Below are positions 8,388-44,902 of a DNA stretch of 64,000 nt, piece after piece. Made by a program: the position numbers and the translations under genes. Every line of letters begins with the position of its first letter. Within the stretch, counting starts at the first letter, position 1. Origin of the DNA: an uncultured Candidatus Saccharibacteria bacterium (GTDB lineage: Bacteria; Patescibacteriota; Minisyncoccia; Phycocordibacterales; UBA918); the NCBI GenBank assembly GCA_964552045.1, contig CAZKFF010000007.1:3949-67948 (forward strand). Direction: 5' to 3'. The notes below the pieces were generated by a model, which made no database searches, was not told where the DNA came from, and worked only from the letters and a program-made list of their open reading frames with translations.

Positions 8388-9482
8388 TCACATAAATGGC
8401 GCGAGGGCTAAGCCGATGGCTGTCGCGTACCCGAACGAGAAGCGCCGACCGATGGGCGGGACCTTCTCTTCTATTGAAAAGGCATTCTGCCACACATTAG
8501 CGCGCTTGGCTTCGACCTCGAGCGTCTCAGTGAAATACGCGGGGAGTCCCTTCATATTGACGCTGCCGCCGCAGAGAATGATCGACTGTATCTGCCGGTC
8601 CTCATGCGCAATATCCTTGGTGTTCCAGTACTGAATGCGCATGCCGATCTCTTCTGAGATGGACGACATGGCGGTAAGAAGCACGTCATAGACGCTGCTG
8701 TCACTTACCCCCTGTATCAACCCCTGGGTGTTCTTGATCTGCGTGAGCTTCGATTCCTCCAGATCGCCCAGTTTTTTGCGCATTGCTGCGGACAGTTCCG
8801 CTCCGCCGATATCAATGGTGGAGGTGTACATCAGTATCCCCCGGTGCACAATACCCACACCGGTACGCGTTTTCCCGAAGTCAACGATCATGTGCGTGCC
8901 AGTGTCTCCGCGCGGAATGGTCGCCCGGGCGATCGCCTGTGCTTCGATCTCAAACGAGACCGGGACGACACCGGCTGCGCGGCAGGCATCGTAATAGCTC
9001 ATGACCGTATCCTTCGCGTATGCGGTTACCGATACCCGCAGCATATTCTCATCATTGCTACCCTCAATGATGTCGTAGTCGAAGAATGCATCCCGTGGAT
9101 TGAGGGGCACGTTTTCCTCGAGACGGAACTCAAGCAGACCGCGCACCTCCTTCTGCGGCGTATCGCGCTTTATTTCGGTTTCAAACAGGTAGGCCCGCTC
9201 TTCGGGAAGTGATACGCGCACATTATCTATGCCAATGCGGTCTTTGACCTCCCGAAGCGCCTCTGAGAGCTTTTTCCCGTCGTGCACGACGCCACGCGAA
9301 AGCGCCCCTTGTGCGATGTCGATATCGCCCCAGTACAGGAGCTGCAGCTGTATGCCGCTGCGGCTGTCGCTCTTGAATTGGATATATTTGAGCGACGTGT
9401 CAGAGACATCCACCCCGGCACTCGGAAGCTGAATATATGAAGGCGGCGGTATGATCTTGCCGAGCGTCTGAAGAACTTTCAT
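8388..9482 (-). CDS. pilM: PilM type IV pilus assembly protein (actin-like ATPase fold)
   Basis: Actin/FtsA-like motifs (IVDFGKTRTGVGIV, ILCGGSVNMKGL). Internal ATG (MKVLQTLG...) chosen as start, 55 nt after the upstream gene. Confidence 0.75.
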   Translation of the reverse strand: MKVLQTLGKIIPPPSYIQLPSAGVDVSDTSLKYIQFKSDSRSGIQLQLLYWGDIDIAQGALSRGVVHDGKKLSEALREVKDRIGIDNVRVSLPEERAYLFETEIKRDTPQKEVRGLLEFRLEENVPLNPRDAFFDYDIIEGSNDENMLRVSVTAYAKDTVMSYYDACRAAGVVPVSFEIEAQAIARATIPRGDTGTHMIVDFGKTRTGVGIVHRGILMYTSTIDIGGAELSAAMRKKLGDLEESKLTQIKNTQGLIQGVSDSSVYDVLLTAMSSISEEIGMRIQYWNTKDIAHEDRQIQSIILCGGSVNMKGLPAYFTETLEVEAKRANVWQNAFSIEEKVPPIGRRFSFGYATAIGLALAPFM

Positions 9483-9537
9483 ATAGTAAGCATTATACGC
9501 TGTTGGGCACTTCAATTCACGGATGCAACTCACACGT

Positions 9538-9873
9538 TTAGTGTACACGTGTCCCCGCAGGGAGCGCTGCGCTCGGATGAAGCAGCGCGAACGTCGCCTC
9601 ATGGTCGGCAGCCAGGATCATGCCCTGACTCTCGAGGCCTCTGATGACCCGCACCTGCAGATTGAGAATAAAGGGGCACTGCTTCCCCACCAGCACGGAT
9701 ATGTCTTCAAAATACTCCCGGATGCCTGAGATGATCTGCCGGGGCGCTTCCTCGCCGACATCGACGGTAAGCTTCAGGAGCTTATCTGCTCCTTCCACGT
9801 ACGCAACTTCCGTGATCGTTCCGAGTGCTATATCGAGCTTCGCAAAATCGTCGTATGAGATGATCTCTTTCAT
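9538..9873 (-). CDS. tRNA-binding domain protein (CsaA/EMAP/Myf-like OB fold)
   Basis: DIALGTITEV...GADKLLKLTVDVGEE..RQIISGI pattern of the tRNA-binding domain family. Confidence 0.7.
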   Translation of the reverse strand: MKEIISYDDFAKLDIALGTITEVAYVEGADKLLKLTVDVGEEAPRQIISGIREYFEDISVLVGKQCPFILNLQVRVIRGLESQGMILAADHEATFALLHPSAALPAGTRVH

Positions 9874-10702: not shown

Positions 10703-12526
10703 TCAGTCCTTCTTCTCCTCGACTGCGAAGTGGAACATCATTCCTGAGTGCAGATGCTCTGCAATGTGGCAGTGCGCCATCCACTTTCCCGGATTGCTCA
10801 TATCGACCAAAAGGTCAACAGTCTGCCCCATCGGAATGAGCACCGTGTCCTTCCACTGGAGGTTGTCGTTGACGACGCCGTCCCTTCCGAGGACCACGAA
10901 GCGCTGTCCGTGGAAGTGGATCGGATGCTGCATAGGATGGAGTCCGCGACCGTCATTGAATATTCTCACCTTTACCATATCTCCCTGCGTAAAGGACCAA
11001 TCAATGTCGCCGTTTCTCTTGCCGGTATCCTGATCTTCGATGATCCACTCTATGGTCTGATCAGTACTGAGCTCATTTATCTCCACCATTCCATCTTCCC
11101 ACTCGATGCCATCGGGATGTGAATGCATCTGCATCGCACTCATACCTTCTATTGTGTAGGCGTCACAGCCATTGGTGTCCGGCATGAGCTGGCAGTGCTG
11201 CTCTGCCTGTGCCCGGGTCATTTCTGTACCATCCAAGACAACCATGTCTGCGTTATCCAGTTGCCTCAGCGCATCACATTCCGCCATCTGCGGCATTATC
11301 TTGCAGTGTTCGACCCCTTGCTCCTTGGTCATCTTCACCCCCATCAGAGTCACATTTCCGTCCGCATCTATCAGACCCTCGCCTTCGGTTGATGCCGTTT
11401 TCAACGCGACATCAAGTCGCAGGCTTTTATCCGGCTTCTGTTTTAGGAGCTCGATGATATTCTCCCGGATACTCGCATAATCGGATGCATTGGAACGGAG
11501 GTTCCGGAACTCCGCGATCCGTGAACCATCATTTTCTTCTACGATCACCTCACCGATCTTCTGGCCGCGGTTGAGGATATCGAACGTCCCTGCATCCTCA
11601 TACAGAAGCTCGACCACCGACCGTTCTGACGGGGCGATGACCGTATTATCGACCATTACCTCCTTTTCAGCCCTGCCATTATCTCCTCCGACCTGCTTCA
11701 TCTGTGCTCCCGAGAAGCTCAGGTCGAATGTACGGGTATTTGCCACATCGGTCATGAAGAACCGCGAGATCTCCCCCTGTTTGACCGTGATCTGGAAATC
11801 CTCCGAGTCATTGATGCGGATGCTGTTCCCATATCTGCCCATCAGGGCGTGGGTTACTATCTCAGGGTCGAAATCCGCATTCTCAAGGAAATCATCGAAG
11901 ATAAGATAGGACTCCTGATCAACTTCATTCCAATACCCCGGTTCTGACACGATGATATTCCCGAACAGACCGAGTCCCTGCTGGTAATCTTCACGGATGT
12001 GCGGGTGATACCAGTAGACGCCCGCGTCAGGGAATGTAAGCTCATAGGTGAATGTTCCTCCTACAGGAATCGGGTCCTGAGCAAGCGGCGCTGACCCGTC
12101 GAAATGCCAATCTCCGCGCAACCCATGGGAATGAAGGGTTGTCTCCATATCAATGCTGTTCTTGAAATTGACGGTCACCTTTGCTCCTTTTTCCACCTTC
12201 AGTACCGGACCTGGTATCTGATCGTTATACGCAAGGCGCTTAACGAGCTTATTGCCGACCTCCTGCGTTACGATCTTTGCCTCGAGATTGAATGTGTCGC
12301 CGTCGTGCAATTCAACGATCTGCGTGGGCTGTATGCGGTCGACATCTTCATGCACGGCGGTGAGTCCGCCGACGAAGTTGTCAGGCACGCGGATCTCTCG
12401 CGTCGCACTATTCTGCAGCAGCGCATTTCCGTACAAGGTGTATACCGCTGCACAGACAGCGAGCAGAAGCACGCTTCCAAGACACAGTAGCGTGTAGGTG
12501 ATCCCGGTTTTAGTAAGTGTAATCAC
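10703..12526 (-). CDS. Multicopper oxidase (CueO/laccase-like) with Met/His-rich insert, membrane-anchored
   Basis: All four copper-ligand motifs present: HSHGLRGDWHFDG, WYHPHIRED, HPIHFHGQRF, HCHIAEHLHSGMMFHF. Met-rich insert ...CKIMPQMAEC...CQLMPDTNGCDAYTIEGMSAMQMHSH. N-terminal hydrophobic anchor. Confidence 0.85.
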   Translation of the reverse strand: MITLTKTGITYTLLCLGSVLLLAVCAAVYTLYGNALLQNSATREIRVPDNFVGGLTAVHEDVDRIQPTQIVELHDGDTFNLEAKIVTQEVGNKLVKRLAYNDQIPGPVLKVEKGAKVTVNFKNSIDMETTLHSHGLRGDWHFDGSAPLAQDPIPVGGTFTYELTFPDAGVYWYHPHIREDYQQGLGLFGNIIVSEPGYWNEVDQESYLIFDDFLENADFDPEIVTHALMGRYGNSIRINDSEDFQITVKQGEISRFFMTDVANTRTFDLSFSGAQMKQVGGDNGRAEKEVMVDNTVIAPSERSVVELLYEDAGTFDILNRGQKIGEVIVEENDGSRIAEFRNLRSNASDYASIRENIIELLKQKPDKSLRLDVALKTASTEGEGLIDADGNVTLMGVKMTKEQGVEHCKIMPQMAECDALRQLDNADMVVLDGTEMTRAQAEQHCQLMPDTNGCDAYTIEGMSAMQMHSHPDGIEWEDGMVEINELSTDQTIEWIIEDQDTGKRNGDIDWSFTQGDMVKVRIFNDGRGLHPMQHPIHFHGQRFVVLGRDGVVNDNLQWKDTVLIPMGQTVDLLVDMSNPGKWMAHCHIAEHLHSGMMFHFAVEEKKD

Positions 12527-12542: not shown

Positions 12543-13226
12543 CTATTCCACTACCAGGTATCCGATCATTCCTTTCTGGCGATGATTCATCACCGAACAA
12601 TAATATTGGAATGTTCCTGTTTTGTCAGCAGTAAAGGTAATTGAGGTATGTTCCCCGTCGTTCACGCGTTCGGTTGCCACACCCAGCTCATCAATGACCC
12701 AGTCGTGGAAACCTTGAGTACTCTTGAAGTTGATAGTGACCGTGTCGCCCTTCTTCACCTTGATCTGGTTGAGATTGTATTCGTAGTCTTTTCCCTCCAC
12801 GTCGAATTCGACATGATGCTGTTGCGAAACGGAGACTGCTGCGTCTGACTTCTCGCGCATATCGATTGCCGGGGTCACTATTGTTCCGTCACTCATCTGT
12901 ATGGTGCCGTTTGCGAGAATGACCGCGTCAGGAATCGTATCGCCGTTTTTCTTCATCACCGTACCGTCAGGCATGATGTGGACTCCCTCATAATTTTCAG
13001 CGTTTGAAGAAGACGAAGGAGCGTCGGACTGGTCCATTGACACAGGCATTGTGGCATTCTCAGCTGTATCTTGCCCGGTTTGGATGTTGGTGTTCTCCTG
13101 CTTTAGATTCACGACCTCGGGAGCGGGTATCATCCCAACTCCTTTGAGGCTATTGAACGCAAGATACCCGCCCACCAAAAGAATGATGGCTGCAATCCCG
13201 GCTAGTATCTGGTATTTTTGAGACAT
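12543..13226 (-). CDS. Cupredoxin (type-1 blue copper protein), membrane-anchored
   Basis: C-terminal domain has the plastocyanin/azurin ligand pattern H (GFHDWVIDE) ... C-x4-H-x4-M (YYCSVMNHRQKGMIGYLVV). N-terminal TM anchor, Ser-rich linker, Met-containing HIMPDGTVM / MSDGTIV motifs. Confidence 0.7.
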   Translation of the reverse strand: MSQKYQILAGIAAIILLVGGYLAFNSLKGVGMIPAPEVVNLKQENTNIQTGQDTAENATMPVSMDQSDAPSSSSNAENYEGVHIMPDGTVMKKNGDTIPDAVILANGTIQMSDGTIVTPAIDMREKSDAAVSVSQQHHVEFDVEGKDYEYNLNQIKVKKGDTVTINFKSTQGFHDWVIDELGVATERVNDGEHTSITFTADKTGTFQYYCSVMNHRQKGMIGYLVVE

Positions 13227-15210: not shown

Positions 15211-16734
15211 ATGACACGAAAAAGAATACAGATTCTTATTTTTATTTTTTTGGGTGTGTGTCTGCTTGGACTCGGTGCATATCTGTACACAAACCAGGTA
15301 TCCGAAGCAGGAACCTACAAACTGACCGATCCTGATTCTTCCGTACATGTCGTTACGCTCACCGCAAAGGGCTTCAAACCGGAACGGCTCATTATTCGGA
15401 AGGGCGATCAGGTTATCTTCGAGAGCGCCGAAGACAGACCCTACTGGCCTGCCTCGGATGTGCACCCGACACATGAGGCCTACCCTGAATTCGATGCGAA
15501 GAAACCGATTGTTCCTCCGGAGAACTACGAGTTTGTCTTCGACAAGCCGGGAGTATGGTCGTACCACGACCATATCGCACACACACTTACCGGGGTTATC
15601 TATGTATTGGAAACAGGCAAAGAAAGCATAGCGGCGATCGATTACGCCAAAGCCGACTGTACGACACTTGATGGCAATGAACGCACCATGTGCTGGGATG
15701 AACATATTCGTGAAGTCGCACGTACGCAGGGACTTGATGCCGCTTTTGATTTCTTCATTTCGCTCTATGACGAAGAGGAAGGTGTGGAAAAATCCTGCCA
15801 CGAATGGATACATGCGCTCGGAGAGGCCGCATACGAGATCTATGCCCAAGGCGGAGAGGTCCAACTGCGAGCGGAGACTTCATGGTGCAGCTACGGCTAC
15901 TATCACGGCTTCATCAATGGCCTCATCTGGGACACCGGAAGCCTCGAAAAGGTTATGGACTTTTGCAATACTGCGGTCGCGAAATACGGTGATGCCCTGC
16001 CGCAGATCAAAAGCAATTGTTTCCATGGCACTGGGCACGCTGGAGTAGACTTGTTCTTCGACGATCCGGCGTATTGGGGTGATTTCAATAAAATAGCTAA
16101 GGCGGGATTCAAACAGTGCGATGATCTGTTCGGCGACGATCCGCTCATAAATGAATGCTACGGCGGGGTCATTCATGGCATCAGGTTCAGCATGCGCAAC
16201 AATATACACGGGATGAACTTTGACATTGTGATCAATCAAAAAGACCCGTACTACTACTGCCGTGATCTCGACGAGAAATACCATCGGGCCTGCTATTCCG
16301 ATTTCGCAAGCATGTTCTGGGATGTTTTCAACGGCGATGTGAAACAGGCAGTGGCCTATATCGTCAACGAGCATATTCCAAACGACGCGGTTACTGCCTA
16401 CTCGCTTCTGAAAGTGTCTGCCGCATGGGTAGAACATGACCTTGCCACCGGTGAACACCAAGCAAACGTCGAAGCGTGCCGCACGGTACAGGGTGAGCTC
16501 TTCGCTGAGTGCTTCCTCGGTATCGGTATCGGCTTTGTACAGCACGGCGAGCCGGACAATATGCACGAAAAGGCCTTTGCCTTCTGCCGGAGTGATTACC
16601 TGACGCCGGCAGAACGGACAACCTGTTTTACCCAGATGCCTGATCTGCTTGTCTCCTCCTATTCTCCTGAACGGATCGCACAGGCGTGCAGCACGCTTGC
16701 CCCGTCTGAGCGATACGGCCGTTGCGCACTGTAG
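15211..16734 (+). CDS. Exported two-module protein, family A: Cys-less cupredoxin-like domain plus Cys/His-rich repeat domain
   Basis: N-terminal TM anchor. Domain 1 PYWPASDVHPTHEAYPEFD...WSYHDHIAHTLTGVIYV. Domain 2 with CHEWIHALGE, CSYGYYHGFINGL, CFHGTGHAGVD, CYGGVIHGI and about 20 Cys. Paralog of 24071-25564 and 46361-47806. Confidence 0.7.
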   Translation: MTRKRIQILIFIFLGVCLLGLGAYLYTNQVSEAGTYKLTDPDSSVHVVTLTAKGFKPERLIIRKGDQVIFESAEDRPYWPASDVHPTHEAYPEFDAKKPIVPPENYEFVFDKPGVWSYHDHIAHTLTGVIYVLETGKESIAAIDYAKADCTTLDGNERTMCWDEHIREVARTQGLDAAFDFFISLYDEEEGVEKSCHEWIHALGEAAYEIYAQGGEVQLRAETSWCSYGYYHGFINGLIWDTGSLEKVMDFCNTAVAKYGDALPQIKSNCFHGTGHAGVDLFFDDPAYWGDFNKIAKAGFKQCDDLFGDDPLINECYGGVIHGIRFSMRNNIHGMNFDIVINQKDPYYYCRDLDEKYHRACYSDFASMFWDVFNGDVKQAVAYIVNEHIPNDAVTAYSLLKVSAAWVEHDLATGEHQANVEACRTVQGELFAECFLGIGIGFVQHGEPDNMHEKAFAFCRSDYLTPAERTTCFTQMPDLLVSSYSPERIAQACSTLAPSERYGRCAL

Positions 16735-16841: not shown

Positions 16842-18020
16842 TTAATTAGAATCGGCGATCCAGCTGTCCAAGAAGAGTGCATTGAAATTGTAACCGGCGA
16901 ACGAGTATTGGAATACGACATTTTTCCCAAGAAGCGGCCGTACCTCAAGACGCGGATTCTTTCTTCCTTCGCCTTGCCGTTCCGGGTCGTTGATCGCCTG
17001 AACCGCATAGTAGGCGCCGTCAGGAGAGAATACCGGCCAATAGAACTGGATATTGTCCTGTTCAATTCTTCCGATCTCTTTCAAAGCAAAGGTCTCCCAC
17101 GATTCGATGTCATAGACCGCGATGACTCCGTTTCCTGGAATGGTCCATATCAGGTGTTTCTTGTCAGGAGAAACCTCCATCATGGCATTCACGAGGAACT
17201 GTCCTTCGCCCTCTGAGCCAAGCACCTTGACTTCCTCGCCTTCTCCGAGCGGGGCTGCGTACAGCCCGTCATGCTTTATATAGATGAGTGTTGTCCCATC
17301 CGGAGACCACTTTGGCTGTGATGCATCGGGGATAACCTTCACGATCTCGTCTGTCTCTGGGTCAACTATGACCGTTTCCCAGTTCTGTATCTGAATATTG
17401 TCGACGCTTCGAGCATGACTGTTCGATGTCCGGCTGAACGCGAGCAATGCTGCTTCGGGAGACCATGCGAGATAGCGTTCACCGGTGCTTGATGCGCTTT
17501 TGAGGTATTTGACTGTTTTCGCTTCTGCATCAACTGCATGGATGCCAAAACTATCCTCATAGACGAGCGGGAACTTTGAAACAGCCGAGACAAAGAATTC
17601 GCTCGGATCGAGCGGATCCTTGAACTCTGCAAGTGCGCTGATAGCGAAGAACGTCTCAAAGAGCTCAGGTTCTGATGAGGTACTTACATCCAACGCATGT
17701 ACCTGTATGGATGATGTGGAATTTGTTTTTCTTCCGCTGAAGATTATTTTTCCTGCAGGCGGCGTGTCCAGCATGACCTCGTCCTGCAAACCGCCCGCAT
17801 CACTGCCCGCAGGCACGGCCTCGGAATGAAGCACTTTGATCAGAGCCATGTCTGCTTCTGTAGGCTGATACTCCTGCGGGCCTGACGGAGCAGCATCGTT
17901 GTCTACGAGCGCAGTATATACGCCCGCGCAGACAGCGACGATCACAACAGCAACGACCACCATCCAATTGATCGCTGTACGTCCTTGAACCTGATCCTTA
18001 AAAGTGCCGTGTGTTTCCAT
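16842..18020 (-). CDS. TolB-like beta-propeller protein (PD40/WD40-like repeats), membrane-anchored
   Basis: N-terminal TM helix, then repeated (W/F)SPDG blades: WSPEAALLAF, WSPDGTTLIY, VSPDKKHLIW, FSPDGAYYAV. Start overlaps the stop of the upstream giant repeat protein. Confidence 0.7.
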   Translation of the reverse strand: METHGTFKDQVQGRTAINWMVVVAVVIVAVCAGVYTALVDNDAAPSGPQEYQPTEADMALIKVLHSEAVPAGSDAGGLQDEVMLDTPPAGKIIFSGRKTNSTSSIQVHALDVSTSSEPELFETFFAISALAEFKDPLDPSEFFVSAVSKFPLVYEDSFGIHAVDAEAKTVKYLKSASSTGERYLAWSPEAALLAFSRTSNSHARSVDNIQIQNWETVIVDPETDEIVKVIPDASQPKWSPDGTTLIYIKHDGLYAAPLGEGEEVKVLGSEGEGQFLVNAMMEVSPDKKHLIWTIPGNGVIAVYDIESWETFALKEIGRIEQDNIQFYWPVFSPDGAYYAVQAINDPERQGEGRKNPRLEVRPLLGKNVVFQYSFAGYNFNALFLDSWIADSN

Positions 18021-18021
18021 A

Positions 18022-20703
18022 CTACGATTTGTATACTCTCAAATTTTTAAGCAGCGTGCGGCTGTCCTTGTCCAGAGTCTTATACCAAGAGGCTCCCAGT
18101 TTTGTACGCAGTGCAGGCGACAGCTTCGTATAGAACCCGTGTGCCTTCAGCTGATACTGCCGCGTGTAACCGTCGCGTCGGGGTGCATCCTCCATCTCAA
18201 CAGCAATCGTGTCTCCCGGCTGAGTGTGGACGAACGTGTGGTTCTGCTCGGCGAGCTCGCGTGACACTTCCCTGTTCTCGCGCTCGTGATACATGCGCTT
18301 CACTGCAAGCGGGGTAAACGTCACATCCTTGGACTCTACCGGGTCTGCCGTAAAGAGGAACGCTGTGCGCACCTTGTGTTTCTTTGTTGCGCGGATGCGC
18401 ATGGTAAGGAACGCCCCCTGTGCGCGCTTGAGCACTTCTTTTGGTATACGGACCACTTCCTGAGACGCCTGCACATAGCGCGGGAAGAGTGTCTGCAGAT
18501 AGGTGATCTCGCCTCCTGCCTCTGCACTTATTACGAGGGACTTTGATGAGTAGCTGCCCTGAGCATAATACGAGCTCTGGGAGTAATAGGAACTCTGGCT
18601 GTAGTACGAGCTCTGGCTGTAATAACCCGATTGCACATATATTGGCGGATAACTGCCCTGGCTATATATAGGATCGTAACTGCTTTGCGTGTAATACCCG
18701 CTCTGGGTATATCCATACGCGCTTTGCGTGTATGGCGTATCCGCATAGGCAGTCTGCCCTAAGGCGAGACCAGATGCGAAGAGCAAACCCATTGCTGCAG
18801 CCGGTGCATTCTTCAGCAGCGTCTGGGAATGTATGTGAAGCTGTTCAAGGGCTGAGAATGGCACCTGATTACCGAGCGTCCAGTCACGGAAATGAGCATC
18901 GACCAGAAGCCACATATCCTCGGTTGGGATATCCTGTACCGGAATCTTGATGAGAAGCTCATCACCGGTATTGAGGGTGATATCCTTCCCGTCCTGTGTC
19001 GGTCCAAGCTGTGTGTATGCCACAGAGGTCGGCGTAAGTCGCGCAGTACGCGTATCGAAATAGTAAGTGCTCTGGGATGGATGCACCTCTGCTTTTTGTG
19101 TATCAAAAATATAGGTATCTTTGAGATTGCCATCAGTTACGGGGTGATGAGAAGCGGGGGTGTCAATAGCAATAAGAGCAAACGAGTCTATATAACTCTC
19201 TTCTGGCTCAACCTCCTTTATCTGCATGCGTATAAGGCCATTTTCACTGTGCGGCTCGTGTTTGAGGAGGTAGGTATCACCACCGATGCCCTGCGCATAT
19301 GCCTTTCTTCCCTCATGCTCGGTGTCGAAAGCGGTGTTCGGTTTTCCGAACAGGAAGTCATTTTCAAAGACGTATTCGCGGCCGTTCCATACCTTCAGGA
19401 ACGGTGTGGAGGTCGGAGTCGAGTATGAACCCTGCTCGTAATATCCGCTCTGGTTGTATATCGGATCATAGCTCGCTTCGCTGTATGTCGGAGTCGGATC
19501 CTCGTATACCAATTCGTAGTACCCTTCGGCATTCATGGTTACATTCTCCGATTTTTCCCAATGACCAGCGTAGTTGGTGCAGTCAACTTCATAGACCGGA
19601 ACACCACCTTCGGCAATGATCGCCTCATACTGTGCCTGATCCTCTTCGTCCATTCGATTGAAGACTTCAATATCACCGTTTACCAGAGCGAGGGTAGCAT
19701 CACCGAGTTGTAAAGAGTTATCAATAATGATCAATCCGTCATCCCCGCTGTCTGACTCAAGATAAAGATCATCCGCCGCTTGCGTGGCACTATACGAACC
19801 CTGCGCATAGGCATACCCATAGCTTCCCTGCGCATAGGCATAGGAACTCTGCGAATATCCGTAGGTGTAGCTTCCCTGTGCATAGGCATAGGAACTCTGC
19901 GAGTAACCGTATGTATAGCTTCCCTGTGCGTAATAGGAGCTCTGTGAATACCCGTAGGTGTAGCTTCCCTGCGCATAATAGCTACTTTGCGAGTAACCAT
20001 ATGTATAACTACCTTGGCTGTAGTAGGAACTTTGTGAATAATAACTGCCCTGTGAATATCCATAGCCGTAACTTCCCTGCGCATAGTAGGAGCTCTGCGC
20101 GTAGTAGGTGTAGCTTCCCTGCGCGTAATATGAACCCTGCGCATAACCATATGTATAGGAACCCTGGGAGTAGTACGAGCTTTGGCTGTAGTATGAGCTC
20201 TGAGAATAGTAGCTTCCCTGCGCGTAGTAGCTTCCCTGCGCGTAGTAGCTGCCTTGCGAGTAATACGAACCCTGGCTGTAGTAGGAATATGAACCCTGGG
20301 AATAGTAGCTTCCCTGTGCATAATAAGAACCCTGGCTGTAGTAGGAATATGAACCCTGGGAATAGTAGGAACCCTGTGAGTAGTATGAACCTTGGGAATA
20401 GTACGAACCCTGTGAGTAGTATGAACTCTGGGAATAGTAGGAACCCTGTGAGTAGTATGAACCCTGCGAGTAGTATGAACCTTGAGAATAATAGCTGCCT
20501 TGGCTGTAGTACGAACCCTGTGAGTAGTATGAACCCTGGCTGTAGCCGTAGAGCATCAGGAACACGGACTGCAGGATCGTTGAGACGCTTTCGGTGTCCC
20601 CCAAAAGGGTCGAATAGACATACCCAACAGCGAGGAGCAAAAGCTGCAGTTTGTTCCTGGACACATAATCGAACGCACGTGATACGTTCAGTACCGTAAA
20701 CAT
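18022..20703 (-). CDS. Giant exported Tyr/Ser/Gln/Gly-rich low-complexity repeat protein (SYYSQG-type repeats)
   Basis: About 890 aa. N-terminal hydrophobic segment (LQLLLLAVGYVYSTLLG). About 265 aa of (S/A)YY(S/A)QG(S)Y repeats. A 350-aa non-repetitive middle domain. An internal signal-peptide-like stretch AAAMGLLFASGLALGQTAYA. A second 65-aa repeat block. A 155-aa basic C-terminal domain. Internal ATG at 20703 taken as start. Confidence 0.75.
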   Translation of the reverse strand: MFTVLNVSRAFDYVSRNKLQLLLLAVGYVYSTLLGDTESVSTILQSVFLMLYGYSQGSYYSQGSYYSQGSYYSQGSYYSQGSYYSQGSYYSQSSYYSQGSYYSQGSYYSQGSYYSQGSYSYYSQGSYYAQGSYYSQGSYSYYSQGSYYSQGSYYAQGSYYAQGSYYSQSSYYSQSSYYSQGSYTYGYAQGSYYAQGSYTYYAQSSYYAQGSYGYGYSQGSYYSQSSYYSQGSYTYGYSQSSYYAQGSYTYGYSQSSYYAQGSYTYGYSQSSYAYAQGSYTYGYSQSSYAYAQGSYGYAYAQGSYSATQAADDLYLESDSGDDGLIIIDNSLQLGDATLALVNGDIEVFNRMDEEDQAQYEAIIAEGGVPVYEVDCTNYAGHWEKSENVTMNAEGYYELVYEDPTPTYSEASYDPIYNQSGYYEQGSYSTPTSTPFLKVWNGREYVFENDFLFGKPNTAFDTEHEGRKAYAQGIGGDTYLLKHEPHSENGLIRMQIKEVEPEESYIDSFALIAIDTPASHHPVTDGNLKDTYIFDTQKAEVHPSQSTYYFDTRTARLTPTSVAYTQLGPTQDGKDITLNTGDELLIKIPVQDIPTEDMWLLVDAHFRDWTLGNQVPFSALEQLHIHSQTLLKNAPAAAMGLLFASGLALGQTAYADTPYTQSAYGYTQSGYYTQSSYDPIYSQGSYPPIYVQSGYYSQSSYYSQSSYYSQSSYYAQGSYSSKSLVISAEAGGEITYLQTLFPRYVQASQEVVRIPKEVLKRAQGAFLTMRIRATKKHKVRTAFLFTADPVESKDVTFTPLAVKRMYHERENREVSRELAEQNHTFVHTQPGDTIAVEMEDAPRRDGYTRQYQLKAHGFYTKLSPALRTKLGASWYKTLDKDSRTLLKNLRVYKS
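18507..18740 (-). repeat. Coding tandem repeat block 2 (degenerate 18-nt units encoding YSQxSY)
   Basis: Recurrent (a/g)ctctgg(g/c)(a/t)gta(a/g)ta(g/c)ga units seen directly in the sequence, within the giant ORF. Confidence 0.7.
19746..20541 (-). repeat. Coding tandem repeat block 1 (about 45 degenerate 15-18-nt units encoding SYYSQG / SYTYGY)
   Basis: Long run of near-identical units, e.g. tagtaggaaccctgtgagtagtatgaaccctg...; all three forward and reverse frames are open here, giving spurious overlapping ORFs. Confidence 0.8.
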
Positions 20704-20807
20704 ATGTATGATTATATATTCATTGGCTCTTCCGCTTGGTGCAAGGGTGTTGACAAGTTTGTGGGAGTGCGCTGCATGTCCGAAAAACACGGTGCGCCGC
20801 ATCAGCG

Positions 20808-21884
20808 CTAGAGCGCGGCAATCTCAAAGCAATAGGCCTTATGTTCCTCATTATCAAACCACGAACAGAACGGATCGAAGGAGACCGAATGGTCATGCAT
20901 CTGTGTTTTGAAGAAACTGTCATGGAATGAACGGATATATGTCCTGGTCAGTTCGTCCGAGAATGACCGGACAATAGGCAGCGGAGTTACGTCTTCGCCT
21001 TTTCCAAGCATAAAGTCTGCAGCAGCAGTTGCTACGCTTTCTACACAGCCTTTCTGCACGGTCGAAGCGATAGCCGGCGCGATACACAGCGCAAGTGCCT
21101 CCTCGATCTCACTTTCCTGCGCTGTTGTGCTCAGACCCAAGCCATTGAGCTCCTTCGCGCAATATCCCTGCAGTTCTTCTGCCAATGAGCTGCAGAAAGA
21201 AAGGAGGTCTCCAGCACTGCTTCCTGCCTTGTGTTGTTGGTCTGCGTGCTCGCTGAATACTCCCCGATAACAGCTTGCGTGAGTAATTGTATCGTCATAG
21301 GTAAGCAGATCGCACTGCTTGAGCGCTTCGAGCGGATCGCGCGTATTTTCCATGAACGAGTGCCCAGCGCCGTGATAGCAGCCCTGATAGTACGGATCCA
21401 GAGGCATGGCAAGCTTGCAGAACTCATAGAGCTTTTCAACGTTCTGTGGGTACGGCTCATTGGCAAGCTGGCCTTCCACCCCATGCATGAAGCCGCTTCC
21501 GCAGAAATCAAGATTCTCTTTGGAAAGAAAATCATGCACTTGTCCGTAATTCTCGCCATAGCCGCCATAGTGTCCGATCACATGAGCGAGCGAATGGCAG
21601 TCGAACATATCGATCTGGCCCTCGACCAGCGCCTGGGTGACCTGATCAATCATTCCATTTATCCCATCATGCTTGAAGAGCACATCGATCTTTTTTTCAA
21701 AATAGCGCTGATATTCAAGATTGCGGAGCTGACTCAGATCGCGTTGCGCCTCTTCGTACGCCGGATCAGACCGCCAGCCCTGTGGCGCGAAGGTCAACAA
21801 CAAAGCCCCGCACAGCACGAGCGCTGCAGTCCCTCCCAGAAAAAGTAATGATATGGTTTTTCTCTGCATGCTCCTGAACATCAC
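20808..21884 (-). CDS. Exported Cys/His-rich repeat-domain protein, family B (paralog 1)
   Basis: TM anchor, then motif triad CHSLAHVIGH / CGSGFMHGVEG / CYHGAGHSFME and about 14 Cys. Module B only. Confidence 0.7.
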   Translation of the reverse strand: MMFRSMQRKTISLLFLGGTAALVLCGALLLTFAPQGWRSDPAYEEAQRDLSQLRNLEYQRYFEKKIDVLFKHDGINGMIDQVTQALVEGQIDMFDCHSLAHVIGHYGGYGENYGQVHDFLSKENLDFCGSGFMHGVEGQLANEPYPQNVEKLYEFCKLAMPLDPYYQGCYHGAGHSFMENTRDPLEALKQCDLLTYDDTITHASCYRGVFSEHADQQHKAGSSAGDLLSFCSSLAEELQGYCAKELNGLGLSTTAQESEIEEALALCIAPAIASTVQKGCVESVATAAADFMLGKGEDVTPLPIVRSFSDELTRTYIRSFHDSFFKTQMHDHSVSFDPFCSWFDNEEHKAYCFEIAAL

Positions 21885-21891
21885 GTGCGTG

Positions 21892-22293
21892 TTATGAACC
21901 GGTTACGGTTATGGTTCCCGTCTTGTTTGCGCGGATGTGGTCGTGATACTTCCATACGCCTACCTTGTCGAATTTGAATGACCACTCATCGCCGGGCGCT
22001 ATAGGAGTCAGCGGATCGAACTCAGGATAGACGCCATGCGTAGGATGCAGATCAGAAGCCGGCCAGTGGAATTCCCCGGACTCATTCACCCAGGTGACCA
22101 CGTCTCCCTGATGTATGGTCACTTCCTTCGGCTCATATCCTGATTCAGTTCGGGTTATGACAACCGCAGGCTCCCCTAGGTTTTGCACTACTGGAGCAAC
22201 TTCGGCGTCCCGATTCTGGAGTAGCAGATAGAGCGCTCCTCCGGCGAGAACAGCAGCAATAATAAGTGCAGCGATAATGAGCTTTTTGTCCAT
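21892..22293 (-). CDS. Membrane-anchored Cys-less cupredoxin-like domain protein, family C (paralog 1)
   Basis: TM anchor plus a single domain VTIHQGDVVTWVNESGEFHWPASDLHPTHGVYPEFDPLTPIAPGDEWSFKFDKVGVWKYHDHIRANKTGTITV. Confidence 0.7.
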   Translation of the reverse strand: MDKKLIIAALIIAAVLAGGALYLLLQNRDAEVAPVVQNLGEPAVVITRTESGYEPKEVTIHQGDVVTWVNESGEFHWPASDLHPTHGVYPEFDPLTPIAPGDEWSFKFDKVGVWKYHDHIRANKTGTITVTGS

Positions 22294-22839: not shown

Positions 22840-24060
22840 TTAATGTCCTGCACGGCACGTCTGTCCCCATGCTGTCGGCAATGTGGAACACAGTTCCTCA
22901 AATGCGGGGGAATTAGGATGGAAGTTGAATGAAGCAACCCGCGCAAGGAAGCTGTAACATTCATCCTGTGCCGCTTTTTCCTGCGCCCGGCTGCACATAT
23001 CCACCGCCGCGCTGACCAGACCCGGGTCTTCTTCAGGGAAGGCATTCGCACTGCGCGCGAAACACGTGCCCATATATTCGCTTGGCAGGCCGTTGCAGGT
23101 TGCGGCCATCTTGTCTGCATCGCCGAGGTTGTGCCGTCCATTTATCGTGAATGCGGACACGAAGCACAGCGACCGATCTTGGTTTTCGCTCAGAGCCGAA
23201 CAGTAATTGATGACACCCTCGCTTGTATAGATATCATTGCCGAACAGCGGCCAGGCTTCCCGCCAGCAGGCGCCGTATTGTTGATCGGTCGCGCTGTTCT
23301 CCGTACAGAATGTCTCAAGAGTTTCGCGGGTCGGCGCACCGTCAGGAAGCATATCCACCAGAGCAAAATCTTCTGGTTCGAGCGGCTGGAAAAGCTGCAT
23401 ATATACGCCTTCAGTGCACAGCTTGCGATAGTCGCGGCCGTCTGCTTTCAGGCCGACCACCTCGCATCCTTCAAGCGACTGCTGCACGTCAGCGAGCGTC
23501 ATATGGATGAGCACATGCCCTATCCCGTGGTAGCAGATCGCTTTGGTGAGGTCGGTAGGATTCCAGCCTTCGCGTTCCTCGCAGGCGATGGAAAGGTCTC
23601 CAAGCGCATACTCGAACTCTTCGTCGCTTAAATCTTCATCGTTAAAACGGGCGACCAACGCTCCATGCGCATAGCCGTTGGAGCACAGACCGTCGGTCGG
23701 CCCTTTAGCGACCACGTCAAGCCATTTGTCTGGATCAAGCGATACTTCATAGTTCCCGAGCTCATGCGCGAGCACATGGCAGTACAGATATTCCGGATCA
23801 TCGCGGCGTATTTGCCGCACCACATCGAATATTCTCTCGGTGGGCATCTCACTGACGAGTTTCGGCACCTCGGTCTCATAGCACGTCGGGCGGTATGGTG
23901 CATCTGCGCACTTCTCCACCATCATGTGCGCATACGCTTCAATACTCTGCGACGACTGTGTGTGTCCGGTGCTCTTGAAGTAGTTATAGCTGAAGACCCC
24001 GGCTGCGATGAGAACTGCGAGGACTATTGCACTGATGATTAATTTATGAGTGTATGCCAT
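22840..24060 (-). CDS. Exported Cys/His-rich repeat-domain protein, family B (paralog 2)
   Basis: TM anchor. CHVLAHELGN / CSNGYAHGALV / CYHGIGHVLIHM. Internal ATG (MAYTHK...) chosen to avoid overlap with the upstream gene. Confidence 0.65.
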   Translation of the reverse strand: MAYTHKLIISAIVLAVLIAAGVFSYNYFKSTGHTQSSQSIEAYAHMMVEKCADAPYRPTCYETEVPKLVSEMPTERIFDVVRQIRRDDPEYLYCHVLAHELGNYEVSLDPDKWLDVVAKGPTDGLCSNGYAHGALVARFNDEDLSDEEFEYALGDLSIACEEREGWNPTDLTKAICYHGIGHVLIHMTLADVQQSLEGCEVVGLKADGRDYRKLCTEGVYMQLFQPLEPEDFALVDMLPDGAPTRETLETFCTENSATDQQYGACWREAWPLFGNDIYTSEGVINYCSALSENQDRSLCFVSAFTINGRHNLGDADKMAATCNGLPSEYMGTCFARSANAFPEEDPGLVSAAVDMCSRAQEKAAQDECYSFLARVASFNFHPNSPAFEELCSTLPTAWGQTCRAGH

Positions 24061-24070
24061 ATATGCCTGG

Positions 24071-25564
24071 TTATAGTAAACAATACTTATTTCTGTATTC
24101 TGCTGCAACCTGGTCGCAGATCATTTGTGTAGTCTCCTGATCGTAGCGCGAACCCATCCGCGGCAGCGTGTAGCTGTAGCAGCTGTCGCGCTCTTCTGGG
24201 GTAAGCTCAGGCAGTTCGCAGAAAGCAAGATTCTGGATGTACTCAATGCCCGGCTCCCCGTACTTGATGTGTCCCCCTGAAAGCCCCTCAATGCACGGCA
24301 GGTGGTCCTCCTGCGGGAATGACCGGCAGAGTGCTATGCCCGTCTGCGCATAGTCAGGCTTCTCGCCATACACGCGGATGTACTCGAACATGAGGCCGAG
24401 CGTGACCATGTCGTTGATGGTGTGGCCGTCGATTGCTGTCTCATTGTTGTCGATCATGTGTTCGTTTATGTACGCAGCAGCCTTTTTGAAGTCGTCATCG
24501 GTGAGGTCGAGCACCACCGGGATCATATTGCTGTAGCATGCTTCACGCCGGGCGAGCGTCTGCTTATTGCAGAATTCAAACGGATGCTGCCGCAGCTCCG
24601 TTATTTGGTACTTCGGGTCCATTGCAAGTATCTCGATGGCGTTGAACACCCCCGTTTCGCAGAGATACGTCTCTAGCTCATTCTGCGCCAAAAGGCCGCA
24701 CACCTTGAAACCGGGTTCCATCATGGCATTGGGATTCCCCCATGTGGTCGGATCACTGCCGTCAATGGCTCCATGCCCCGTCCCATGGAAGCAGGCAGTT
24801 GCCGCTGCTGATGCTTTGCCGCGGAGTTTCTCGTCAACCACCCTGCAGAATTCGCGCGCCTCATCAATGTCGCCGGTAGTGAGGAGAAGCTGCTCCATGA
24901 AGCCGTGATAAAAACCATATCCGCATAGTGCTGTGGCAGGGGTGAGGTCGAAATTACGATGTTCGGCATAGAGCTCATAGGCTTTTTCTCCGATGAGGTG
25001 ACTGTACCCATGGCAATCGTTGAGGAACAACGGCTCGGTCTCCGAGAGGTAAAGCACCTGGTTGAGTGCTGCCTCAACGCCATCGCGGTCAAGCGTATCA
25101 AGCATCATCTTTTCCCAGCACTGAACCGTCCGTTCCTGCGTGCAATCGACAACAACATGCGTGCCGTCTTGTCGTTCAACGAGTATCTCCCCCTCGAAAT
25201 TCGAAGCGATATGGTCGTGGTAGAGGTAGGTGCCCGGTTTATCGAACGTGAATTCCCACGTCTCATCTGCAGGTACCGGCTGCTTCGGATCGAATGCGGG
25301 AAATGCGGTATGCGTTGGATGCACGTTTGATGCCGGCCAGAACGGCCTGTTCACTGTAGCCCTGAAGACCACCGTATCCCCTGCCTGAATGGTGAGCTTC
25401 TGCGGATGGAAGCCGTCGTCTTTGAGGACCACCTCGTAGCGGGTCTTATTAAAGAGATCCGGGATTGGGATCAGGTCAAAGAAGAGCGCTGCAGCAGCGC
25501 CAGCTGTGACAATGCCCACGAGCGTCCCCGCTATCCATATTCTTTTGTATTTCAAAAACTGCAT
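24071..25564 (-). CDS. Exported two-module protein, family A (paralog 2): cupredoxin-like plus Cys/His repeat domain
   Basis: TM anchor. RPFWPASNVHPTHTAFPAFD...YLYHDHIASNFEGEILV, then CHGYSHLIGE / CGYGFYHGFMEQL / CFHGTGHGAIDG. Confidence 0.7.
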   Translation of the reverse strand: MQFLKYKRIWIAGTLVGIVTAGAAAALFFDLIPIPDLFNKTRYEVVLKDDGFHPQKLTIQAGDTVVFRATVNRPFWPASNVHPTHTAFPAFDPKQPVPADETWEFTFDKPGTYLYHDHIASNFEGEILVERQDGTHVVVDCTQERTVQCWEKMMLDTLDRDGVEAALNQVLYLSETEPLFLNDCHGYSHLIGEKAYELYAEHRNFDLTPATALCGYGFYHGFMEQLLLTTGDIDEAREFCRVVDEKLRGKASAAATACFHGTGHGAIDGSDPTTWGNPNAMMEPGFKVCGLLAQNELETYLCETGVFNAIEILAMDPKYQITELRQHPFEFCNKQTLARREACYSNMIPVVLDLTDDDFKKAAAYINEHMIDNNETAIDGHTINDMVTLGLMFEYIRVYGEKPDYAQTGIALCRSFPQEDHLPCIEGLSGGHIKYGEPGIEYIQNLAFCELPELTPEERDSCYSYTLPRMGSRYDQETTQMICDQVAAEYRNKYCLL

Positions 25565-25977
25565 TATTCGGTGACGATGATAGTGCCCTGCAGGGTTGAG
25601 TTCAGATGGTCATGGTAATCCCACTGCCCAACGCGAGTGAACTGGAACGACCAGGTCTGGTCCTGCGGGACCGGCTGGAGCGGATCAAACGCACGGTACT
25701 GCGAATGGGTCGGATGCTGGTCGGAGGCAGGCCAGAATGGGTATGCACGCACAGAACTCCATTCCACCACATCCCCTTTCTTGATGGTCAGCTCTTTGGG
25801 CTCAAAACCAGAGTCGTACAAGACCACGGAATGATGGGCTCCTTCGGGCATGGTCTCTTCCGCAGTTGCCCCTTGTTGCGACATAAGCAGCAAAGCCGCA
25901 GCAGCCGCACATACGGCACAGGCGAGCACTGCGGCAATGATACTGATTCTTCTGTTCATGTTTAATCCGATATGCAT
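25564..25977 (-). CDS. Membrane-anchored Cys-less cupredoxin-like domain protein, family C (paralog 2)
   Basis: TM anchor plus YPFWPASDQHPTHSQYRAFDPLQPVPQDQTWSFQFTRVGQWDYHDHLNSTLQGTIIV. The stop abuts or overlaps the start of the family A gene upstream (shared coordinate 25564). Confidence 0.7.
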   Translation of the reverse strand: MHIGLNMNRRISIIAAVLACAVCAAAAALLLMSQQGATAEETMPEGAHHSVVLYDSGFEPKELTIKKGDVVEWSSVRAYPFWPASDQHPTHSQYRAFDPLQPVPQDQTWSFQFTRVGQWDYHDHLNSTLQGTIIVTE

Positions 25978-30271: not shown

Positions 30272-31081
30272 CTACTGTGAAGCAATGTCGATATTCTTCT
30301 GTATGATCGCCCGAAACTCAGCGAGACCCTGCGACCATGCCTGCGGATCATTTCCCGGATACGAGCGTCCCCAGTCCTGTACGCTCAGGAGCGCTGCTGC
30401 TTCTTTTGCCCGTTGCAGGTACGGCAGCGCCGCATCTGCATCGCGCGTATTCATGACCGCCAGGCCGTACATATTGAGGAGCCACGCATTGTCCGGCTCG
30501 TATTCGAGGCCCTCTTCAAGCACGGGGAGCATGGATTCGTATTTTCCCTGCGCAAAATATATCCATGCGAGATCGACACGCGACCACGGCGCCTGCGGCG
30601 CAAATGTTATGAAATGTGTGAATGCCTCCTCGGCGCGGACCCAGTCGTCTTGGTTTCCTCCCACGCGCGCCTGATATCCGTAGGTCAGTCCGATCATGTA
30701 ATAGACATTGGGGACGCTGTCACCGAACAGACGTATCTGCGTATTGAAATTCTCGAGGGCGGCATCGAACTTGCCTTCGATGAAATCGATGCGGCCGAGC
30801 TGATAGTACACGTATTTGTTCTCACTGGGGCGCGCAGCGATCTCAAGCTCGAAATAATGCCGCGCCTTTTGAATATCGTACGGGCCTTCGGGATCCTCGT
30901 CATGGTTGAAGTAGTATTGGCCGATCTCAAAATAGGTCCTGTTCTGGAGTTCCAGAGCCTGCGCCTGCTGCGCTTGCATCACAGACGAAAACAAAAGCCA
31001 CACGCCAAAAGTGAAGAAGAGGCAGGCGCCGCCAATTGCCAGCAGCAGCTCCCCGGAAACAGACTGTAAATGCAACTTCAT
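30272..31081 (-). CDS. TPR-repeat protein, membrane-anchored
   Basis: N-terminal TM, then several 34-aa TPR-like units (YYQLGRIDFIEGKFDAALENF..., YYMIGLTYGYQ..., WIYFAQGKYESMLPVLEEGL...). Confidence 0.7.
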   Translation of the reverse strand: MKLHLQSVSGELLLAIGGACLFFTFGVWLLFSSVMQAQQAQALELQNRTYFEIGQYYFNHDEDPEGPYDIQKARHYFELEIAARPSENKYVYYQLGRIDFIEGKFDAALENFNTQIRLFGDSVPNVYYMIGLTYGYQARVGGNQDDWVRAEEAFTHFITFAPQAPWSRVDLAWIYFAQGKYESMLPVLEEGLEYEPDNAWLLNMYGLAVMNTRDADAALPYLQRAKEAAALLSVQDWGRSYPGNDPQAWSQGLAEFRAIIQKNIDIASQ

Positions 31082-31158
31082 GCGAGTTAAGTATAGCAAA
31101 CAGATACCGCGCCTCGTGCGCTATCACATCCGCTACATATATATAGTATAGTAGTGCC

Positions 31159-31752: not shown

Positions 31753-31757
31753 CATGC

Positions 31758-33266: not shown

Positions 33267-33343
33267 TCCTAGAATTTTAATAGACTATGTTATGCATTCT
33301 TAACGCATCCATATTATAATATAGTCACAATTATTTCTGCACC

Positions 33344-42128: not shown

Positions 42129-42204
42129 ATACGCATATGATACACCCGTTATGTCAATTTTTAGACACAAGGTGTTGATATTTTGACATACACCTTTTCT
42201 TGTC

Positions 42205-44808: not shown

Positions 44809-44902
44809 ACGTCAGAATTTTATTGTACACCCTGAGGGTGTGGGGTGGGAAGAGAAGTTATTAGGAGGGTACCATTACTCAATATTAACAAAACAAGAGG
44901 CT

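Follow-up and report, generated by a model that had tools for sequence, protein, structure and literature searches.

What does a bacterial protein with some 330 residues of tyrosine-rich tandem repeat do, and how is the signal-peptide-like stretch in its middle to be understood? The question is raised by the minus-strand gene at 18022-20703 of a 64,000-nucleotide stretch of contig CAZKFF010000007.1 (hereafter the window), from an uncultured Candidatus Saccharibacteria bacterium. Bacteria of the candidate phyla radiation (CPR, Patescibacteria) are ultra-small and mostly episymbiotic, and to our knowledge almost nothing has been established about their surface biology. An earlier note on this DNA described a giant secreted protein made of SYYSQG-type repeats with a FUS-like low-complexity domain. 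The analysis identified 18022-20703 as a genuine gene for a CPR (Paceibacteria-type) cell-envelope protein of 893 aa which, as judged from sequence similarity, is an expanded member of a Patescibacteria-wide, unnamed family. We favor, with a probability of about 0.55, the reading that it is an envelope protein in which Tyr-rich extracellular tethers have taken the place of the family linkers.

All frames are open across the repeat, as the earlier note had stated and the open reading frame (ORF) listing confirmed, hence ORF length alone is weak evidence for a gene. Two overlapping ORFs, at 19731-20321 (minus strand) and 19878-20699 (plus strand), were indeed spurious, as both are wholly contained in the repeat. 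The ORF might in principle reflect a simple repeat that was expanded or collapsed during assembly, or a pseudogene in which the repeat alone keeps the frames open. Against this stand the DNA units of the array, which are non-identical and differ mostly at synonymous positions, the flanking domains, which are full-length and retain every invariant family residue, and an ortholog in an independent metagenome-assembled genome (MAG) that is intact and has its units in the same order. An artefact or a decaying gene is thus barely conceivable, and the earlier description of a real, intact, repeat-rich ORF holds.

The ortholog was found in a scan of one genome per species, on contig CBFGXL010000009.1 of an uncultured-bacterium MAG (locus L007), and it also bears on the gene start. 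The minus-strand ORF at 18022-20802 encodes 926 aa from its first ATG. The likely true start, on sequence comparison, is the ATG at 20703, the coordinate that the earlier note had used, because the N-terminus aligns with the L007 ortholog from M34 of the 926-aa ORF, and because the upstream DNA is conserved with L007 only as non-coding islands. The indels separating these islands are not multiples of three. From this ATG to the stop codon at 18022-18024 the coding sequence encodes 893 aa, which does not merit the label giant.

The Tyr-rich sequence falls into two blocks. Block 1 (19792-20547, minus strand; aa 53-304) contains 37 degenerate hexapeptide-type units in 252 aa, parsed at the protein level as 13 SYYSQG, 7 SYYAQG, 4 SYYSQS and 4 SYTYGYSQS, plus variants. 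It consists of 33.3% Y, 29.0% S, 14.7% G, 14.7% Q and 6.0% A, with no charged residue. Block 2 (18547-18741, minus strand) has 65 aa with 27.7% each of Y and S. The approximately 330 repeat residues first reported correspond to both blocks plus a short Tyr-rich stretch ahead of the first folded domain (domain A, below). Both arrays are predicted to be disordered: in the full-length AlphaFold2 (AF2) model, repeat 1 (aa 52-335) and repeat 2 (aa 655-718) had a predicted local distance difference test (pLDDT) value of ~29 and no secondary structure. No further Tyr-tract gene was found in the 64-kb window.

Tandem Repeats Finder recovered the degenerate DNA units reported for both regions (array matches 69-92%). 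Between 19792 and 20539 the periods were 18, 36, 45, 48, 54, 90 and 150 nt, the highest score being 331, and a smaller array was placed at 18566-18624. The differences between block 1 DNA units were mostly synonymous; all six Ser codons were used, and TAC/TAT and CAG/CAA were mixed within otherwise identical peptide units, indicating that the array is old and maintained at the amino-acid level. The L007 ortholog, 875 aa from the equivalent Met and 80% identical over the best tblastn segment (domains A to B), carries an array that aligned unit for unit with that of the window, with few unit indels, all in frame. The gradient from SYY(S/A)QG to SYTYGY(S/A)QS-type units was also kept, and the surrounding cupredoxin genes, 175-aa gene and propeller gene were in conserved order. 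The synonymous diversity of the units and the conservation of the array in an independent MAG argue against both an assembly artefact and a slippage or contingency locus, the two possibilities that the earlier note had raised; the comparison of unit number between close relatives is drawn from one relative, L007. Near-identical DNA units, as expected of a phase-variable simple-sequence locus, were not seen, and between the window and L007 only a few units are gained or lost, always in frame, with unit order and length nearly the same.

The earlier description as a repeat protein was correct as far as it went; it had missed that the protein belongs to a large family and that the repeats lie at the family's variable-linker sites. 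A homology search with the region after repeat 1 retrieved 64 proteins (E values 4e-146 to 3e-22; best matches 3.7e-146 to 1e-100), nearly all of 460-615 aa and annotated as hypothetical wherever named, two of them under the names Candidatus Kaiserbacteria and Candidatus Nomurabacteria. When 1.84 billion cluster representatives (50% identity) were searched with a profile, 1088 members emerged at E<=1e-3 and 156 at 1e-30, with a typical length of ~500 aa. Genome records that contain relatives carry the names Kaiserbacteria, Nomurabacteria, Moraniibacteriota, Saccharibacteria, Sungbacteria, Azambacteria, Paceibacterota and Minisyncoccia. The family is undescribed in Pfam, NCBIfam and the Protein Data Bank (PDB): the 893-aa protein matched no Pfam or NCBIfam family, and a PDB sequence profile search with it returned no related chain. 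A literature search on tyrosine-rich Patescibacteria proteins, bacterial extracellular prion-like domains and YcaO action on protein substrates yielded nothing on the family or on the Tyr tract.

Family members share one plan. An N-terminal hydrophobic region, either a transmembrane (TM)-like helix plus a short LLPxFGL-type helix or a signal peptide ending in AxA, is followed by a low-complexity linker and by domain A (STPFLxxWNG ... ENDFLFGKP ... EPEESYID ... RDWTLG). An amphipathic, K/R-containing helix then leads into a hydrophobic helix, the invariant A-x-A-D-x-P, a second low-complexity linker and domain B (SLV ... PRYVQASQEVVRIP ... ATKKHKV ... GFYT ... W..LD). The ordered motifs STPFLxxWNG, ENDFLFGKP, EPEESYID, RDWTLG, AxAD, SLV, PRYVQ, ATKKHKV and GFYT were all present in the 893-aa protein, which matched every invariant or nearly invariant column. 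Modules A and B are laid out alike, each with a hydrophobic export or anchor helix, a low-complexity linker and a beta-sandwich. Across the family A has a median net charge of -12 and is negative in 96% of members, and B has a median net charge of +7 and is basic in 71%. The domains were also seen inside larger representatives, P0053 (900 aa, with a 400-aa C-terminal extension), P0107 (803 aa), P0169 (1311 aa) and P0179 (1134 aa); in examples of 1100-1300 aa, domain A stands by itself at the C-terminal end. A and B thus also serve in other architectures.

The Tyr tracts occupy exactly the two variable-linker positions of this plan, and their lengths are extreme outliers. The region before domain A measures 431 aa against a family median of 88 and a next-longest value of 156 among 52 parsed members, and linker 2 measures 72 aa by the same parsing against a median of 16. 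The linkers of relatives are Gly/Ser-rich, Pro-rich or, in a distant branch, Cys/Gly/Asp-rich, and in most they are short and Gly/Ser-rich. Tyr-rich linkers are confined to a sub-branch consisting of this gene, L007, P0001 (50% identical by BLASTP, with ~95 aa of (S/T)YY(S/K/L)Q(G/S) units), P0006 (a Tyr-rich linker 2 of 125 aa) and, more weakly, P0015. Relatives of the type of A2392_02360 (P0031, Candidatus Kaiserbacteria RIFOXYB1_FULL_46_14) and H6783_01390 (P0041, a Candidatus Nomurabacteria MAG) share the domain motifs and their order, the internal helix with AxA-D-x-P and a downstream propeller, at 27-56% identity in the aligned A-to-B region; they differ in being ~500-560 aa long with short Gly/Ser, Pro or Cys-rich linkers, where the protein described here has Tyr arrays of 252 and 65 aa and an insert of ~120 aa.

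The tract is not confined to this family. A search with repeat 1 alone returned 19 metagenomic proteins, and sequences and Pfam matches placed the (S/T/A)YY(S/T/A/N/G)Q(G/S) tract in several unrelated protein contexts. It was C-terminal in type IV pilin-like proteins (P0190 and P0201 with an N_methyl match, P0191 with a similar N-terminus) and N-terminal in P0200, an fn3-domain protein bearing a JGI name as LPXTG-anchored. By sequence reading it began right after an apparent signal-peptide cleavage site in P0192 (SALA, then VDAPPPYLQSEYY) and P0196 (VEA, then GYGQGGYY), which parallels the tract that follows the internal AYA-D here. It lay between Ig-like domains in P0189, which has an apparent signal peptide, a C-terminal TM segment and a sortase gene ~1.2 kb upstream. 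It was further found in a PG_binding_1 protein (P0204) and before a pretoxin-HINT (PT-HINT) domain in P0188 (a sub-threshold match of 21.6 bits). Read from the N-termini, every context in which the location could be judged appears to be extracytoplasmic. This recurrence on pilin-like, LPXTG/FN3, PG-binding and other signal-peptide proteins suggests a reusable extracellular module, and the earlier proposal of a secreted protein is upheld in the sense that the 893-aa protein is probably extracytoplasmic.

The predicted structure gives the repeats their frame. The full-length AF2 model (pLDDT 62; predicted template modelling score (pTM) 0.57) places N-terminal helices at aa 2-16, 18-34 and 37-54. 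The helix at aa 18-34 (20602-20652, minus strand; KLQLLLLAVGYVYSTLL; maximum hydropathy KD19 1.27) is preceded by R/K residues and is a putative signal-anchor, corresponding to the N-terminal hydrophobic segment already noticed; homologs have a TM-like segment or a canonical signal peptide at this position. The second short hydrophobic helix (aa 37-54; 20542-20595, minus strand), ending in ILQSVFLMLYGY, equals the family motif LLPxFGL directly before linker 1. Between block 1 and domain A lies a lineage-specific insert (aa 305-427; 19423-19791, minus strand), alignable only with L007, which comprises a small beta-beta-alpha-beta element and, after it, an acidic linker containing Tyr; in the model aa 336-372 have a pLDDT of 51-72 with a weak beta-beta-alpha-beta arrangement, and the region beyond is disordered. 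Domain A (18853-19422, minus strand; STPFLKVWNG ... EPEESYID ... RDWTLG) is an acidic beta-sandwich. The 350-aa globular domain proposed between the repeat blocks therefore resolves into the ~120-aa insert, a ~190-aa beta-sandwich and a helix. Domain B (18025-18546, minus strand; KSLV ... FPRYVQASQEVVRIP ... ATKKHKV ... GFYTKLS; pLDDT >90) is a beta-sandwich with two C-terminal helices; it is basic, as had been stated, with a net charge of +11, and is ~175 aa rather than 155 aa long.

An AF2 model of aa 428-893 from a 62-sequence alignment reached a pLDDT of 84 and a pTM of 0.81. A and B were both beta-rich with pLDDT values above 90, one long helix crossed the internal segment, and 71 residues of linker 2 were disordered. 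A pTM this high despite 71 disordered residues suggests that A and B form one rigid body. Module A is modeled as a carbohydrate-binding module (CBM)-like, galactose-binding-like jelly-roll. Foldseek gave no significant match in the PDB for the two-domain A/B body. The idea that A and B arose by internal duplication was tried and rejected (hhalign probability 2%).

The signal-peptide-like stretch itself, KNAPAAAMGLLFASGLALGQTAYA followed by DTPY, is present 632 residues into the protein with no stop between it and the N-terminal helix, as the earlier note had recognized. The segment (APAAAMGLLFASGLALGQTAYA; 18742-18807, minus strand; KD19 1.26) ends in the family-invariant A-x-A before D-x-P, and the sequence reads LLKN-APAAAMGLLFASGLALGQ-TAYA and then DTPY, with discernible n-, h- and c-regions and an AxA site. 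The closest relatives, P0001 to P0004, show the same organization with AxA; A227 is invariant and D228 occurs in at least 90% of aligned sequences. Use of the segment as an alternative internal start, also suggested earlier, is not supported: the sole Met (M638) lies inside the h-region and is Leu in the L007 ortholog, the Met positions of other relatives do not align, and no Shine-Dalgarno sequence was found ahead of the internal Met. An origin for the segment is suggested by L017 (9737-11458) and L018 (9671-11539), where, by a natural fission or permutation, separate genes encode the two modules, B coming first and A second. The B protein there has a Lys-rich N-terminus, a hydrophobic helix, ~25 residues, AHADTPPPPPPP, the linker and domain B. 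The A protein likewise starts with a hydrophobic region, but no strongly hydrophobic helix is present at its end. The AxAD motif and linker stand directly ahead of domain A in L021 and L022. Since the separate B gene bears the segment N-terminally, and since L021 and L022 agree, the segment is best read as the export or anchor helix of module B; it is a conserved family feature retained in the fused gene and not a second start.

How such a protein attains its topology is a question that the family poses. In a type I arrangement, repeat 1 and A would be exported, the internal helix would act as a stop-transfer anchor, and repeat 2 and the basic domain B would lie in the cytoplasm, as in a transmembrane receptor. 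Simple Sec logic argues for this, as a lone hydrophobic helix that follows an exported domain is expected to halt translocation, so that B stays in the cytoplasm; the split into an acidic A and a basic B across most of the family fits it, and by hydropathy the internal segment is a true TM helix in 78% of relatives (median KD19 1.87). In the 893-aa protein, however, the helix is only marginally hydrophobic (KD19 1.26). K/R residues precede it rather than trail it (mean 2.0 before and 1.2 after), and the Tyr tract that follows it belongs to a type whose other occurrences are on secreted proteins. The split genes each have an N-in type signal of their own. In L017 and L018 the same helix forms the N-terminus of a separate B protein with four Lys before it, so that B is predicted to be N-in/C-out and hence outside, and AF2 puts A and B in one rigid body. 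As both hydrophobic segments are marginal (KD19 1.27 and 1.26), the internal helix could traverse the translocon, or insert as a hairpin with cleavage between AYA (A654) and D. On the sequence and modeling evidence, A and B both on the outer side is more likely than B inside, and the type I arrangement, although possible, is in our view doubtful.

With both domains placed outside, the Tyr tracts are most likely extracellular, flexible, self-adhesive tethers, as judged from their composition, position and recurrence. In this lineage the short family linkers are replaced by long Tyr arrays of 252 and 65 aa, predicted to be disordered, whose dense Tyr/Gln 'stickers' could give weak multivalent self-association or adhesion. 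The tethers would hold a two-lobed, CBM-like A/B head off the membrane, inside or beyond the wall layer, where it might work with a membrane-anchored propeller. A wall or host glycan as the ligand of the head is a guess from fold alone.

Besides the Sec logic and the charge split already named, several points weigh against this reading. The compositions of linker 1 and linker 2 showed no significant co-variation across the family (Y rho 0.2, p 0.15), so a shared environment for both linkers is supported only in the Tyr-rich sub-branch. P0055 and P0059 are without any N-terminal hydrophobic segment. The packing of A against B rests on AF2 confidence values, and neither experimental nor literature support was found for what the family or the Tyr tract might do.

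A bolder version would have the CPR YY-hexapeptide as a cohesive material on pili, wall proteins and the A/B complex, forming a FUS-like surface condensate or hydrogel, perhaps copper-hardened, for host attachment, with the internal signal peptide exporting the second half of a fused complex in a rare polyprotein-like topology. We regard this combination as unlikely. If the tracts are sticky tethers, as we favor, they would offer a simple bacterial case of low-complexity 'sticker' domains acting outside the cell, and might serve in attachment to hosts. Pili that carry Tyr-rich tails would merit attention with regard to adhesion.

The gene may have its own promoter. A TATAAT (-10-like) box lies at 20711-20716 (minus strand), 7 nt 5' of the ATG, in a block identical in L007 amid diverged intergenic DNA, and the short spacing suggests a very short or absent leader, possibly a leaderless transcript. 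A 14-mer, ACTTGTCAACACCC, at 20745-20758 (minus strand) is also identical in the window and L007 and is a possible regulatory site or operator. A promoter and terminator consensus scan of 16-30 kb listed fewer promoter-like sites than shuffled sequence did, and the TATAAT at 20711-20716 was not among them.

Directly downstream, at 16842-18020 on the minus strand, lies a gene for a membrane-anchored, PD40/DPPIV_N-like beta-propeller of 392 aa (Pfam DPPIV_N, 1.6e-6). Its product is homologous to those of the genes that follow family members in L001 (4e-42) and L002 (8e-34), and in a phmmer survey a propeller was immediately downstream in 16 of 24 non-redundant loci. The locus thus points to a widespread two-gene system, an A/B beta-sandwich protein and a beta-propeller, that is in no database description. 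A Mur-ligase gene and a TPR gene recur near family loci; the window copies are at 34041-35381 and 30272-31099.

The neighborhood also contains copper genes. A multicopper oxidase with three Cu-oxidase domains is encoded at 10703-12526 (minus strand), and cupredoxin-type genes lie at 12543-13226, 21892-22293 and 25564-25977 (all minus strand). Cupredoxin-domain N-termini were assigned to 15211-16734, by a weak ascorbase match and a match to 25564-25977, and by Pfam to 24071-25564; 46361-47806 has a probable one by sequence match to 25564-25977 only. Copper oxidases could use the Tyr arrays as substrates for dityrosine or quinone links, giving a hardened or adhesive coat by analogy with laccase-containing spore coats, resilin and mussel foot proteins. 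The array is 33% Tyr, which makes oxidative cross-linking appealing on chemical grounds, and several of the copper genes share the strand and the gene run of the Tyr-rich gene. A multicopper oxidase was, however, absent within 10 kb of the L007 ortholog, no copper genes were found near P0015 (a Tyr-containing family member) or P0189 (an unrelated Tyr-tract protein), and copper genes are common in these genomes, so the linkage may be incidental. Linkage of the oxidase to Tyr tracts is not conserved in these cases, and cross-linked wall material is quite improbable as the role of the tract.

Other features of the window were recorded alongside. With a multicopper oxidase and several small cupredoxins within 10 kb, the neighborhood is unusually copper-rich for a small genome. 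Apparent paralogs with a Cys/His-rich domain (C..H and CxHGxGH-like motifs, no Pfam match) surround the Tyr-rich gene at 15211-16734 (plus strand) and at 20808-21884, 22840-24108 and 24071-25564 (minus strand); these four were recognized by eye, and 46361-47806 (plus strand) is a possible fifth only through its N-terminal match to 25564-25977. A PilM-type type IV pilus assembly ATPase-like gene (8388-9602, minus strand; Pfam PilM_2, 1.6e-24) lies ~8 kb away. Two low-GC islands, 31001-34000 (0.42-0.47) and 42001-45000 (0.39-0.44), stand out from ~0.53 elsewhere. The first contains a PMT_2-type (GT-C) glycosyltransferase gene at 31758-33266, which could bear on O-glycosylation of Ser-rich secreted tracts, and the second an 867-aa ORF at 42205-44808.

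A further association was found in distant relatives. A SagD-type YcaO (TIGR03604; 268 bits, the cutoff being 219) and a nitroreductase-fold SagB dehydrogenase, both identified by NCBIfam, were no more than 3 kb from the family gene in 10 of the 24 loci, mostly directly upstream in the same direction: L005 (1756-7596), L006 (3684-8502), L013 (3442-8521), L014 (7492-12490), L015 (2746-7754), L021 (6457-11218) and L023 (6631-10192), and, divergently oriented, L004, L017 and L018. The family members at these loci have Cys/Gly/Ser/Asp-rich linkers with a recurrent CGCGN motif, for example LCSCDCSSGAGSGDGSCGCGNGG and LCACDCDCSCDGGSGDCSGTCGCGNGG. Linkers like LCACDCDCSCDGGSGDCSGTCGCGNGG resemble the core of microcin B17 (McbA). 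In this distant branch the linkers of a ~500-aa membrane protein may, on sequence grounds, be the YcaO substrate. CPR genomes have been reported to carry linear azol(in)e-containing peptide (LAP) clusters commonly, on the assumption that the precursor is short (PMC7298704). The proposition that Cys linkers always accompany YcaO failed on P0036, which has Cys and no YcaO within -3.4/+7 kb; the YcaO link thus tracks the distant branch rather than Cys content.

If the same chemistry applied here, the protein would resemble the substrate of a RiPP system, in which peptides made on ribosomes are modified after translation, its linker Ser being cyclized to oxazol(in)es by a YcaO/SagB pair. The G-S dipeptide in most or nearly every block 1 unit would suit such a reaction, as would the enzyme pairs and microcin-B17-like linkers of the distant loci. 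No YcaO or SagB homolog was detected at E<1e-5 in the 64-kb window or in L007, however, and the pair was missing across the whole near branch (L001, L002, L008-L010 and L025-L028). The linkers of the 893-aa protein contain no Cys, and P0036 shows that linker Cys can occur with no YcaO in the flanks seen. Modification of this kind is highly unlikely for the Tyr tracts. For the relatives, the family raises the question of whether YcaO and SagB install azoles on a ~500-aa membrane protein instead of a short peptide. This YcaO link is among the points of note of the locus, along with the puzzling topology that the internal signal implies and the recurrence of the Tyr tract as an extracellular module.

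Set against known systems, the protein is known in kind, as a surface protein with a repeat stalk, here inside an uncharacterized family. A biosynthetic parallel is the LAP or thiazole/oxazole-modified microcin (TOMM) type exemplified by microcin B17, as distant family members directly follow a SagD-type YcaO and SagB and carry Gly/Cys/Ser-rich tracts like the McbA core; the differences are the lack of both enzymes in the window, the Cys-free tract, and the size of the candidate 'precursor', which would be no short peptide but a membrane protein of ~500 aa. The modeled head recalls galactose-binding-like and CBM beta-sandwiches (CBM32, CBM6, F5/8 type C, and the receptor-binding domains of binary toxins). 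Identity is only 4-15%, with no sequence-level relation to any CBM family, and sugar-binding residues were not identified.

The likeness to FUS that the earlier note had emphasized holds for composition and for AF2-predicted disorder. The tract is uncharged and ~92% S/Y/G/Q, and its regularly spaced Tyr residues make 'sticker-spacer' behavior plausible. The likeness fails in motif grammar, Tyr density and cellular context. The FUS low-complexity domain has ~13% Tyr, 20 [G/S]Y[G/S] triplets and no YY doublet, whereas block 1 has 33% Tyr and a YY-doublet hexapeptide in strict tandem array; its 252 aa contain 27 YY doublets and 11 [G/S]Y[G/S] triplets, and dispersed triplets are thus not its repeating element. 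The protein is, moreover, bacterial, probably extracytoplasmic and membrane-tethered, and has no RNA-binding partner domains. The resemblance is one of compositional convergence only and not of homology.

A closer counterpart is offered by the Ser-Asp repeats of Clf/Sdr proteins and by serine-rich repeat adhesins, which likewise place a long, Ser-rich disordered array between an anchor and a folded binding head. In Gram-positive bacteria, several surface proteins that are not related to one another can carry similar arrays within one kind of organism, as may be the case here. The aromatic, Gln-rich, uncharged chemistry of the Tyr tract differs from theirs, as do the missing LPXTG anchor, the presence of two arrays, one on either side of a hydrophobic helix, and the absence of a demonstrated linked glycosylation system. 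In function, the tract would by analogy come nearest to such low-complexity stalks on Gram-positive surface proteins, built with a different chemistry.

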